Position numbers and translations under genes: made by a program. Source: Escherichia coli (GTDB lineage: Bacteria; Pseudomonadota; Gammaproteobacteria; Enterobacterales; Enterobacteriaceae). From it: a stretch of DNA of 64,000 nt. The notes beneath the pieces are model-generated. The model ran no database searches. It was given only the letters and a program-made list of their open reading frames with translations, and was not told the origin of the DNA. Positions 41,971 to 45,139 of this stretch are shown piece after piece; the first letter of the stretch is position 1; every line of letters begins with the position of its first letter. Location of the stretch: NCBI RefSeq assembly GCF_045037415.1, contig NZ_CP173438.1. One strand, given 5' to 3'.

Positions 41971-42642
41971 TTAGCCTCTGATGATTTTAAGCGCCCATGC
42001 GCCACTCATAATGACCAGCAGCACCAGACACATACCAAAAGCCAGCATACAAGCCTGAGCCATATTCATAAAATGCCATGGTGGTAGCAGATACCAGCCT
42101 TCAGATTGCTGATACATTTCCACAAACCACTGTTGCGTGCTGCTCAGTGTGACGCCATCAGGAACGATTGGTGCGTCATAGCCACAATCCCCGGTAGGCT
42201 TGAACCAATTTGGTGCCCACTGTGCCAGCGGCAGGTTAAAGGGAAAAGTGGGATCGGTAGAGCAACCCTGTACGCCAAACAGTGAATCGGGATCCGGATT
42301 ATGTACTGCATGGTGGATATCGTTCAGTTTGAGCGAAAACTTCAGTCCCAAAATGCTGCCGTAAAATGCCATCACGCAGCCAATTAGCTTGAGGATGATG
42401 TTCTTTGGATTGATCGCTGCAACCAATCCTCCAATCACCATCACAAACATGGCGTAGCGAATGTATACACATTGCTCACAGGGTGCCATGTAGAGATAGA
42501 TCTGGAAGAAAGAGTGCGCCAGGATAATTAACGTGCCCATCGCAACGGCCATTAACAACCACAACAAGCGTTGCTCCTGCCATCTGACCAGTGTGTCAAC
42601 TGGTGATGTGCGAAGATCTTTCCACATTCCCTTAATACCCAT
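41971..42642 (-). CDS. dsbI: DsbB-like membrane thiol oxidoreductase
   Basis: 223 aa ORF with DsbB-type TM helices and periplasmic Cys pairs ([11 protein letters not shown]). Confidence 0.85.
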
Positions 42643-42656
42643 AGCCTGTTTCCCTG

Positions 42657-43325
42657 TTATTTGCTTGCTAACTCACGGATAAGGTCTGCCATCGCGTCGA
42701 TGGATTTGATGCTCTTGGTGTAGATCAAGTACTTACCATTAACGACATAGGCTGGAACCCCCTGGATTTTGGCGACATCATAAGAGGCTTTCCATTTTTC
42801 CAGTGTTTCTTGAACTGCTGGTTCTTTCAGTGCCGCTTCAAAATCCGCCTGACTCATACCTGCGGCATCCAGACCAGTTTTGATAAAGGCAGCGGGATCT
42901 TTACCGTCAGACCAGCGTTCTTTTTTGTCGTGATAAGCCGCGTAGTAGGCAAACTTGGCTTTCTTAAACTGAGAGTTAGCATCAAATAAGGAAATGCCTG
43001 CTGCTTTATCTTTATTGATCAAGACCGCAAAGACTTCGCTTGCTTGTTTGCCGTATTCACCTTTGGTTTCCAGATGGAACGGCGTGAAAGCAACGATATC
43101 TTTCACTTTTTCCGATACCGGACCGGTAACCGCTTTGTCGTACTTGTAACAGAACGGGCAGGCGTAGCTAAATACCTTAATCAGCGTTTTGTCGGCATTC
43201 GGAATAGGTTTTTCCAGAACCATGTAATCCGTGCCTTCGGTAAATGCAGAAGCGGTAAATGAAACAGCCAAAGCTGCGGTAAGCAGTATGGTTTTAAATA
43301 GTGATGAGATCCCTAATTTCGACAT
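42657..43325 (-). CDS. dsbL: Periplasmic DsbA-like thiol:disulfide oxidoreductase
   Basis: 222 aa ORF with signal peptide and CPFC thioredoxin-fold active site. Confidence 0.85.
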
Positions 43326-43342
43326 TTTTATTCCCTTCTTAA

Positions 43343-45139
43343 TTATTTGAACATCTGTTGTGGACGGACTAACAGTGCACGATAGTGAGTCTGATTGGGT
43401 TTATCTGACAGCACGTCGATTTCCACTTTCACTTCTTTGGTTTTGTAATCGATTTCGTTCAACTTACCGATGGTTGGCTGCCCGACATCGAACAAATGAA
43501 TAGAACCACCGAAGCCAAACATGGTGTTACGGTCGGCTTGATATTCAATGATGGAGGTAATCGGGCTATAGAAATCGTAGCCACGTTCTTTACCGTATTC
43601 CCACACTTGCTGAACGGTGCCTTTCTTCTCATCAATCTTATATTCCACAAAGCGGGAGTATTTCATGGTTGGTAAGGCAGGTTGTTCCAGATGACGCCCA
43701 TCGCCATTATCAAAAATGGTGAGCGTTCCTTTGCTGGAAATCCAGGCGGTATGCTGGGTGTAGGTAAAGTCGAAGTCTGAGTTTTCGCACAGGCCATTTT
43801 CGTTACAGGTAATTGGCTTACCGTTAGCATCAACCGGTTTCAGCAGCTTGCTGGCCAGCGGTTTTTCCCAACCTTTAGAGGGCGCAAGGATCCATTTCAC
43901 TTGCTTATCACGACCAATCTTCACAACACCCTGGTGGCGAGAGGAGAGGATGATAGAGTCATCTTTTGCGTCATAGGCGATAGAGTTCACGTGCGCCCAG
44001 TTGCGGCCTGGCCCTACACCCAGCGCGTCGCCGAACGGTGTATCTGGTTCCAGTTTTGCCTGTTGTCCTGCATGGGCAAGGTCAACGTTAACGCAAACTG
44101 CACCTGCATCCAGCGCGCCGAGCAGTGCATCGCGTTTCGGATCGAGGATCTTGGTCAGATCCCATACATCGACAACGCGACCAGATTTATCGACTTCGAG
44201 GATATGGTCACGAATGGTGGTGACGTGTACGCCGTCATCGCGACGATAGTTACTCTTACCTACGCGCAACAGTACCGTGCCATTTGGCGTCTCAATGGAC
44301 TCATGAGTGGCGTCAGCAAATCCGCGCGGTAGTTTGTGATCTTCGAGCACCTGCCCCATCATGTCGAACTCGTACCAGTGCTGACCTTGTACAGCGGTAA
44401 AGGTGCCGCGTGGCGTTTCACGGATACCCATCAGATAACCACGTTTGTTAATGTTGCGGTCACGACCATCGTAGAAGGTGTTTTGATCCAACCACCAGCG
44501 GTATTCGCCTTCCGTATCGACGATAAAGGTGAATGGCGCGATATCAAAAGGGAGTGCGCCAGTTGCCGGACCCGCATCAAGGATACCGGCATTTTTATCT
44601 TTCTCACCATGCCAGTGGAGATCGGAACCTTGGGCGGTAAAGGTGTGGGTATTAACCAGATAGAGGCGATCTTCAAAACCTGGCGCGACTTTAACGACTT
44701 TGGTTTGCTGTAGGTCGGAGATGGAGCGGTTATCCATGTAATTGTTGACGATGGCGGAAGTCTGCACCACGTAATCATCTTTCATGGCCTTACCGTTTTC
44801 TTTCCACTCAACGGTCACTTTGTTCGCAAACTTCTGGTAAAGACCAAAAATCGGTACACCATCGTAAGTTTTCAGTGACTCGTTGCCCACTTTATAGCTG
44901 ATGTCAACGCCTTTTTCGCCCTTCCCGTGGACGGTAACTTTGACGTCAGAAATAACATGGCTGTCTAAATCAACCAGCGCGGTTAAGGGCGCATTACCGT
45001 AGGGATCGACGATAATCGCCCCAAGCTGCCCGGCAGGCGGTGCTGGTTTAAAACCCGCAGCCATCACCCCCGATGCTGACAAACCCAGGGTTATCGCCAC
45101 AGTTCCGGCTACGAGTGTTTTTCTATATTTATCAAACAT
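43343..45139 (-). CDS. assT: Periplasmic arylsulfate sulfotransferase
   Basis: 598 aa ORF with signal peptide (MFDKYRKTLVAGTVAITLGLSASGVMA) and beta-propeller arylsulfotransferase character; first gene of the assT-dsbL-dsbI unit. Confidence 0.87.
   Translation of the reverse strand: MFDKYRKTLVAGTVAITLGLSASGVMAAGFKPAPPAGQLGAIIVDPYGNAPLTALVDLDSHVISDVKVTVHGKGEKGVDISYKVGNESLKTYDGVPIFGLYQKFANKVTVEWKENGKAMKDDYVVQTSAIVNNYMDNRSISDLQQTKVVKVAPGFEDRLYLVNTHTFTAQGSDLHWHGEKDKNAGILDAGPATGALPFDIAPFTFIVDTEGEYRWWLDQNTFYDGRDRNINKRGYLMGIRETPRGTFTAVQGQHWYEFDMMGQVLEDHKLPRGFADATHESIETPNGTVLLRVGKSNYRRDDGVHVTTIRDHILEVDKSGRVVDVWDLTKILDPKRDALLGALDAGAVCVNVDLAHAGQQAKLEPDTPFGDALGVGPGRNWAHVNSIAYDAKDDSIILSSRHQGVVKIGRDKQVKWILAPSKGWEKPLASKLLKPVDANGKPITCNENGLCENSDFDFTYTQHTAWISSKGTLTIFDNGDGRHLEQPALPTMKYSRFVEYKIDEKKGTVQQVWEYGKERGYDFYSPITSIIEYQADRNTMFGFGGSIHLFDVGQPTIGKLNEIDYKTKEVKVEIDVLSDKPNQTHYRALLVRPQQMFK

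Follow-up and report, generated by a model that had tools for sequence, protein, structure and literature searches.

The window analysed here, a 64,000-nucleotide stretch of Escherichia coli contig NZ_CP173438.1 (assembly GCF_045037415.1), carries the three genes assT, dsbL and dsbI between the core genes ygiD and ygiC. This locus is the already known assT-dsbL-dsbI operon, which has been described in detail down to crystal structures. We consider it highly probable that the window holds this operon with its published mechanism, that the operon is regulated along the lines proposed below, and that it represents an old module lost in K-12-like lineages. According to this reading, assT-dsbL-dsbI would be an old enterobacterial module staying in the tolC-ribB neighbourhood rather than a mobile island; throughout Escherichia its place would be between ygiC and ygiD, and one ancient empty allele would have replaced it in E. 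coli lineages including K-12, O157:H7 and O113:H21. One more genome of the sequence type 131 (ST131) kind with the operon adds nothing in itself; the contribution of the present analysis lies in the context.

The operon and its three products

The first-pass annotation had described a three-gene unit at this place, and the three open reading frames (ORFs) were recovered on the minus strand at exactly the coordinates it gave, with ygiD on one side and ygiC on the other (Table 1). Further out, the gene order is ygiC-ygiB-tolC on one flank, and zupT lies past ygiD on the other. As the matches to characterised proteins were full-length with E-values from 0 to 1e-126, a chance match is not an issue. 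The intergenic spacers measure 17 bp between assT and dsbL and 14 bp between dsbL and dsbI, each with a Shine-Dalgarno sequence. The terminator after dsbI consists of a perfect 12-bp stem (8 G-C pairs) and a 5-nt loop, followed by a T-run. The three genes are predicted to be transcribed together from the AT-rich upstream region, and the hairpin after dsbI would end the transcript.

To our knowledge, AssT is the only structurally defined sulfotransferase independent of 3'-phosphoadenosine 5'-phosphosulfate (PAPS), and it serves as a reporter in DsbA-inhibitor screens. The alignment of the window protein with the crystallised enzyme of uropathogenic E. coli (UPEC) strain CFT073 (PDB 3ELQ) scored 1319 bits and covered mature residues 28-598; 10 of these 571 residues differ. 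Both the N-terminal immunoglobulin-like domain and the ASST beta-propeller domain are present, as seen from the 3ELQ alignment and from the Pfam matches to PF17425 (1e-28, residues 42-127) and PF05935 (1.5e-135, residues 146-587). The residues required in catalysis, among them the transiently sulfated His436, are given in a 2026 review (PMC13426309). The catalytic and binding residues His436, His252, His356, Asn358, Arg374 and Thr501 are all present in the window protein, where they occupy precursor positions 463, 279, 383, 385, 401 and 528, respectively. Cys418 and Cys424 are present as well, and a disulfide between them is predicted. The signal peptide is 27 residues long and stops exactly at the start of the crystallised mature chain, which predicts export to the periplasm. 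Compared with the CFT073 system (PDB 3ELQ, 3ETS and 3ETT for ASST, 3C7M for DsbL), the genes, their order and the chromosomal site are alike, and the ten substitutions in AssT are conservative, with all catalytic residues and the Cys418-Cys424 pair kept. Judged by its sequence, nothing functional sets the window allele apart from CFT073 AssT.

AssT is known as a periplasmic homodimer (PMC13426309, PMC7810732, PMC6067686). It transfers the sulfuryl group from aryl sulfates such as MUS (4-methylumbelliferyl sulfate) or pNPS (p-nitrophenyl sulfate) to phenolic acceptors in a PAPS-independent, ping-pong manner via sulfo-His436 (PMC13426309). Such transfer was shown experimentally for the 98%-identical CFT073 enzyme (PMC7810732, PMC13426309), and the window AssT would be expected to possess the same activity. 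The first-pass remark that the physiological substrate is poorly defined still applies, as the natural donors and acceptors are still not known according to the 2026 review (PMC13426309).

The CPFC active site ascribed to DsbL was located at residues 56-59, and the GVP cis-Pro loop of its DsbA-like thioredoxin fold at about residue 190. Mature DsbL is 100% identical to PDB 3C7M and matched the Salmonella DsbL structure 3L9U at 9.8e-122. Its 27-residue signal peptide likewise ends where the crystallised chain begins. DsbI passed the curated NCBIfam equivalog model NF003304 with 417.4 bits against a cutoff of 212, while its score on the DsbB model (82.7 bits) was below the cutoff of 157. It aligned to DsbB structures at 4.7e-10 through both cysteine pairs, namely the CEQC motif at 55-58 and Cys127 with Cys153 in the long second loop. 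A crude hydropathy scan indicated approximately four hydrophobic segments, at about 24-50, 57-84, 81-104 and 191-223.

Hence, the two proteins resemble DsbA and DsbB of K-12 in having a thioredoxin-fold oxidase with a CxxC motif and a cis-Pro loop on the one hand, and the four-cysteine, roughly four-helix DsbB layout on the other. However, they are distant paralogues (about 50 bits for DsbL against DsbA, about 40 bits for DsbI against DsbB). DsbL has CPFC where DsbA has CPHC, and the 223-aa DsbI has a longer second periplasmic loop than DsbB. Unlike DsbA/DsbB, which form a general pair, dsbL and dsbI are encoded beside one client enzyme. AssT-DsbL-DsbI is a textbook case of a dedicated oxidative-folding pair with its client. 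Going by the published, near-identical proteins, AssT would be exported to the periplasm and, needing no PAPS, would pass the sulfuryl group of a phenolic sulfate ester on to a second phenol in a ping-pong reaction via sulfo-His436. Its activity would require the Cys418-Cys424 disulfide, which the DsbA paralogue DsbL is expected to introduce with its CPFC site, and DsbI, as a membrane DsbB paralogue, would reoxidise DsbL.

AssT needs this single disulfide, which DsbL/DsbI supply in vivo, and DsbA/DsbB are also able to fold AssT (PMC7810732, PMC6067686). The latter capacity, together with the partial restoration of motility by plasmid-borne DsbLI in a CFT073 dsbAB dsbLI mutant (PMC6067686, PMC7810732), could be taken to mean that DsbL/DsbI serve as a second general oxidative-folding system for many envelope and virulence proteins, with assT merely linked to them. 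We regard such a general role as unlikely. Enterobacteriaceae, Budviciaceae and Edwardsiella keep the order assT-dsbL-dsbI, the assT homologues of Campylobacter have DsbL- and DsbI-like genes near them, and the gene spacing of 17 and 14 bp is tight. In addition, a truncated DsbL groove and specificity for AssT have been reported (PMC7810732, PMC13426309, PMC6067686), and silence in standard culture is ill-suited to a housekeeping role (PMC7810732).

From within E. coli out to Salmonella, the dN/dS ratio (nonsynonymous to synonymous divergence) of assT, dsbL and dsbI was 0.01-0.09, as low as that of ygiC and ygiD; the values were 0.02-0.06 for assT and 0.01-0.04 for dsbL. Since the ORFs are intact as well, the assT-dsbL-dsbI unit is therefore intact and under purifying selection. 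This matching of the flanking core genes nearly refutes the idea of a silent operon in decay that no longer has a function in the lineage. It is true that no expression is seen under standard conditions, that bladder colonisation in mice does not need the operon (PMC7810732), and that IS1 or ISVsa5 insertions lie within the cassette in a few genomes. Nevertheless, at least 80% of the cassette is kept in 1,508 of 1,508 carriers, every functional residue is present, and induction of the operon in urine from infected mice has been reported (PMC7810732). Decay is thus a very improbable explanation.

Upstream region and regulation

The AT-rich region of roughly 480 bp noticed before assT measures 484 bp (45140-45623), with a guanine-plus-cytosine (GC) content of 27.7% as compared with 50.2% for the window. 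For its proximal part (45140-45383), blastn searches and MAFFT alignments showed homology to the sequences upstream of assT in Citrobacter, Salmonella and Pseudocitrobacter. As Citrobacter and Salmonella hold the cassette in another chromosomal slot, this homology indicates that the proximal part belongs to the cassette. In the alignment of upstream regions, the Shine-Dalgarno context TATATAAGGAGATATATCCATG of assT was nearly invariant. The block at 45314-45383 contains a dyad (ACAATGT at 45374-45380 and ACATTGT at 45340-45346) and a weak sigma-70-like promoter, composed of a -35 element TTGTGA (45338-45343), a 17-nt spacer and a -10 element TACTAT (45315-45320). The CTACTATC core was found once, in homologous context, in 18 of the 23 loci, which come from three families. 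TTGTGA-N17-TACTAT agrees with the consensus at 8 of 12 positions, under the threshold of 9 of a generic promoter scan, and was left unflagged by it, so the promoter call draws on conservation. If this element does function as the promoter, which its conservation suggests, the leader would be about 170 nt long.

No homology to the distal part (45384-45623) was found outside Escherichia. Between Escherichia lineages this part is 78-82% identical, where the coding DNA is 90-98% identical. The leader of strain 300033 from the third haplotype class described below (L056 5641-6124) is about 82% identical to 45140-45623, with coding genes at 94.5-97.6%; regulatory alleles differ between this class and the window lineage. 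Within the distal part, at 45497-45528, ATTTAACATTAA and TTAATGTTAAAT form a perfect inverted repeat of 12 nt around a gap of 8 nt. The 484-bp leader contains zero ORFs of at least 45 aa and no conserved small ORF. An Rfam search of 41800-45800 in E-value mode returned no family, the sole match being a chance small nucleolar RNA (E=0.48).

For Salmonella Typhi, repression of the cluster by H-NS and its activation by LeuO are described in PMC4264507. In the AT-rich promoter region of the window, with its 27.7% GC, the proximal 245 bp is homologous to the upstream region of S. enterica subsp. arizonae. By analogy with Salmonella Typhi, H-NS would probably keep the E. coli region silent, and the LysR-type regulator LeuO would activate it.

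The comparison gave one modest new lead, a LeuO-like regulator of the LysR family next to assT. Each of the seven loci from Budviciaceae and Edwardsiella encodes such a regulator divergently from assT (Table 1). Its best NCBIfam model was BsrA with 127-131 bits, followed by LeuO with 95-104 bits, both below cutoff. Immediately next to the conserved TACTAT core, these loci have a perfect dyad, TTATCTCT...AGAGATAA. No trace of the linked regulator was detected in the Escherichia, Citrobacter, Salmonella and Campylobacter loci. We tentatively suggest, as a possibility that is still rather doubtful, that the ancestral module had its own LeuO-like regulator, which Enterobacteriaceae lost while they kept the core promoter, and that the paralogue LeuO took over. 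If true, this would account for the control of the assT operon by a global H-NS antagonist. The linked regulator would then be a candidate ligand sensor, whose effector could reveal the natural substrates of AssT and the inducing signal.

Occupied and empty sites

Among 5,426 complete E. coli genomes, 1,508 (27.8%) were found to carry the cassette, each copy covering at least 80% of the query. The copies are chromosomal and nearly always sit at one place per genome. Plasmid carriage was considered and rejected, as the three matches in the plasmid collection were records of 4.9 Mb, 4.9 Mb and 0.73 Mb, not ordinary plasmids. According to identity with the window, the copies fall into three haplotype classes of at least 99% (n=527), 95-99% (n=719) and 90-95% (n=262). 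The window copy itself is 100% identical at the DNA level to that of EC958 (O25b:H4-ST131). The middle class comprises, for example, Nissle 1917, NC101, UM146, APEC O18 and the probiotic A0 34/86, and the third class, which contains an O17 strain, probably belongs to non-B2 phylogroups. The statements on lineages are based on the named strains EC958, Nissle 1917, UM146, APEC O18, K-12, O157:H7 and O113:H21 and their presumed phylogroups. The window ParE (51809-53701) has Leu529, in agreement with the complete identity of the cassette to that of EC958; we take ParE I529L to be an ST131 marker. In a few carriers (H1/H51 AZ 186, H141-H144) an IS1, IS1A or ISVsa5 element was seen within the cassette, which would mean occasional inactivation.

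The unit had been regarded as a lineage marker known from UPEC and other extraintestinal pathogenic E. coli (ExPEC). Its value as a lineage marker was upheld, with carriers including ST131, ST95-type strains and Nissle 1917 (B2-type strains) in addition to the third haplotype class. The pathotype association stood in part: CFT073 and EC958 do carry the unit, but so do two probiotics, Nissle 1917 and A0 34/86, as well as NC101, a commensal of mice. Because these strains are among the carriers, the unit marks lineages rather than pathotypes or uropathogens. The locus is unmentioned in PMC2831201.

The three genes had been taken to be absent from K-12. Comparison of the ygiD-ygiC interval agreed with this, since MG1655 has only a 37-bp spacer there. 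Homology between MG1655 and the window stops at the ygiD and ygiC stop codons, and the 37-bp hairpin spacer CCGGATGGCGAGTGCCATCCGG replaces 3,698 bp (window 41926-45623). The same spacer allele, with few single-nucleotide polymorphisms, was present in O157:H7, O113:H21 and a fourth lineage; the four empty strains sampled, with K-12, presumably represent phylogroups A, E and B1. Among the non-carriers listed, each spans 2,240 bp across the site, and at the sensitivity of megablast each genome has one copy of the spacer. One old origin of the empty allele is indicated by the same spacer across the empty lineages, the 2,240-bp span and the single copy. A dispersed repetitive extragenic palindromic (REP) element was considered for the K-12 spacer and rejected on its single-copy status.

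Two side observations concern this comparison. In the K-12 record (L001, NZ_CP025268.1, MG1655 'Boston'), ygiB is directly followed by nudF with no tolC annotated between them; this is presumably an engineered tolC deletion strain, which would leave the comparison unaffected. Moreover, ygiD is unusually diverse in E. coli, with 94-98% pairwise nucleotide identity among eight strains versus 96-99.7% for ygiC, and this diversity may reflect recombination around the presence/absence polymorphism.

The first-pass annotation had termed the unit an island, and in the sense of a horizontal acquisition this term was contradicted. Only the three genes lie between the flanks, and no mobility genes were found there. 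No tRNA genes were detected within 30000-56000, and no flanking or boundary repeats. The GC content of the coding sequences (49.9% for assT, 44.8% for dsbL, 48.5% for dsbI) is normal, and only the non-coding leader is AT-rich. Cross-species loci were taken from an AssT scan of species-representative genomes. The cassette is located between ygiC and ygiD in E. whittamii, in Escherichia sp. MOD1-EC7003 and in the divergent lineage labelled 'E. coli' SCPM-O-B-8794; a short contig of E. albertii agrees with this placement, and Pseudocitrobacter is arranged likewise. Divergence of the cassette is broadly similar to that of the flanks across these Escherichia lineages. As the unit occupies the same site with flank-like divergence in E. 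albertii, E. whittamii and two further lineages, the K-12 state is more likely a loss. The most economical reading of these sequences would be an old module, present at the site since before Escherichia diversified and lost once in a K-12-like ancestor.

In Citrobacter, S. enterica subsp. arizonae (L013) and Intestinirhabdus, the cassette was found about 2 kb away, between yqiD and ribB. The genes and their order in Salmonella enterica, the source of DsbL 3L9U, are the same as in the window, with 85-88% protein identity for subsp. arizonae. The proximal promoter block and the Shine-Dalgarno region of Salmonella are homologous to the window, whereas the distal upstream DNA is unrelated, and the subsp. 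arizonae cassette occupies the yqiD-ribB slot, as in Citrobacter, instead of the ygiC-ygiD slot. Within the tolC-ribB neighbourhood, the cassette has thus changed between two slots together with its conserved promoter core. In Pseudocitrobacter (L007), a yqiD-like small ORF was observed at 5533-5643 between ygiC and assT, and no yqiD homologue was detected after zupT in this locus; its rearrangement may therefore differ from that of Escherichia. Searches for a yqiD remnant in the E. coli leader by tblastn and blastn gave no significant match (E 0.09 or worse). Further afield, Budviciaceae and Edwardsiella keep the assT-dsbL-dsbI order at 69-85% identity, with the cassette between gltD and sspB. 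The Campylobacter AstA loci have assT homologues of 40-47% identity with dsbL- and dsbI-like genes nearby.

The alternative to this ancestral origin is a genomic islet acquired horizontally by ExPEC/UPEC lineages as a small pathogenicity island, whose AT-rich leader would betray a foreign origin. It would fit the lack of the unit in K-12 and 72% of complete genomes, the 27.7% GC of the upstream region, the junctions that coincide exactly with the two stop codons, the empty allele having unrelated sequence between them, and the mosaic, deeply diverged assT alleles. Reviews also describe commensal and enteric pathotypes as lacking DsbL/DsbI (PMC6067686). Yet an islet should be judged quite unlikely, because no integrase, transposase, tRNA gene or flanking repeat accompanies the unit, the coding GC of 45-50% is near the window mean, and the plasmid-collection matches are not ordinary plasmids. 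The shared site in four other Escherichia lineages with flank-like divergence, the Citrobacter and Salmonella cassettes that remain within the same neighbourhood, and the carriage by Nissle 1917, A0 34/86 and the commensal NC101 argue in the same direction. It is thus preferable to regard the locus not as a virulence islet but as an ancestral trait of Escherichia that the K-12-like lineages lost.

It should be pointed out that several observations weigh against this ancestral reading, and that loss is no more than the likelier reading. Neither end of the cassette is related to the K-12 spacer, whose resemblance to the REP-like ygiC-ygiD spacer of Salmonella goes no further than the 9-mer CCGGATGGC and ATCCGG; because CCGGATGGC is common to the two spacers, the empty junction could itself be old. 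A further caveat is the empty strain 19AR0646, whose ygiC allele is nearest to that of a carrier. In MOD1-EC7003, assT and dsbL (L005 6001-8479) showed a synonymous divergence (dS) of about 1.14, as opposed to 0.29-0.44 for dsbI, ygiC and ygiD, and between two B2-type strains the dS was 0.14 for assT versus 0.03 for ygiC. These raised values indicate allelic exchange, so inheritance was not purely vertical; in the MOD1-EC7003 lineage the pattern points to an allelic replacement covering assT-dsbL. The representatives of E. fergusonii, E. marmotae and E. ruysiae were not among the matches of the AssT scan. As for function and control, the tricistronic operon is silent in standard culture (PMC7810732), and in E. 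coli the H-NS and LeuO sites as well as the transcription start site are putative.

Table 1. Positions of the operon, its flanks, its regulatory elements and other features (window coordinates, except for the LysR regulator, which is given in the coordinates of the loci named)
Feature	Position	Strand	Remarks
dsbI	41971-42642	minus	223 aa ORF
dsbL	42657-43325	minus	222 aa ORF; signal peptide residues 1-27
assT	43343-45139	minus	598 aa ORF; signal peptide residues 1-27
ygiD	41137-41925	plus	core flank; 4,5-DOPA extradiol dioxygenase; NF007914, 533 bits
ygiC	45624-46784	minus	core flank; glutathionylspermidine synthase family
Intrinsic terminator	41933-41961	minus	after dsbI; common to convergent ygiD; single for the unit
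Proximal regulatory region/leader	45140-45383	minus	about 245 bp; homology to assT upstream regions in other genera
Conserved block with dyad and promoter-like element	45314-45383	minus	top non-coding conservation in alignment A1
Distal AT-rich region	45384-45623	minus	Escherichia-specific, 240 bp; contains ygiC terminator hairpin 45591-45611
LysR regulator (L016-L018, L020-L022, L052)	about 4600-5615	minus	Pfam HTH_1 and LysR_substrate domains
Fimbrial adhesin-like	34438-35487	minus	
Fimbrial chaperone	35484-36233	minus	
Fimbrial usher	36240-38777	minus	
Fimbrial YgiL-like subunit	38847-39410	minus	

Other features of the window

A chaperone-usher fimbrial operon was observed on the minus strand in the ribB-yqiD slot, within 33052-40160 (Table 1); AT-rich DNA lies before it, at about 39350-40100. 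In Citrobacter and Salmonella, assT-dsbL-dsbI occupies this very slot. The fimbrial operon is 65-74% identical at the DNA level to ygiL-yqiGHI of K-12. The copy that K-12 has between glgS and ubiK is missing in the window, where 33052 joins 33127. We assume that the window operon is probably of the ExPEC 'Yqi' type.

Directly after parE, an iron-uptake cluster extends over 53765-60957. It begins with a TonB-dependent siderophore receptor (713 aa, minus strand), which is followed by an ABC ATPase, two Fec/Fhu-type permeases, a 336-aa ORF without assignment and an RpiR-family regulator; K-12 is not known to have this cluster at the corresponding place. An Hcp/TssD type VI secretion tube protein was recognised at 62179-62658, close to where the window ends, by TIGR03344 with 199 bits.

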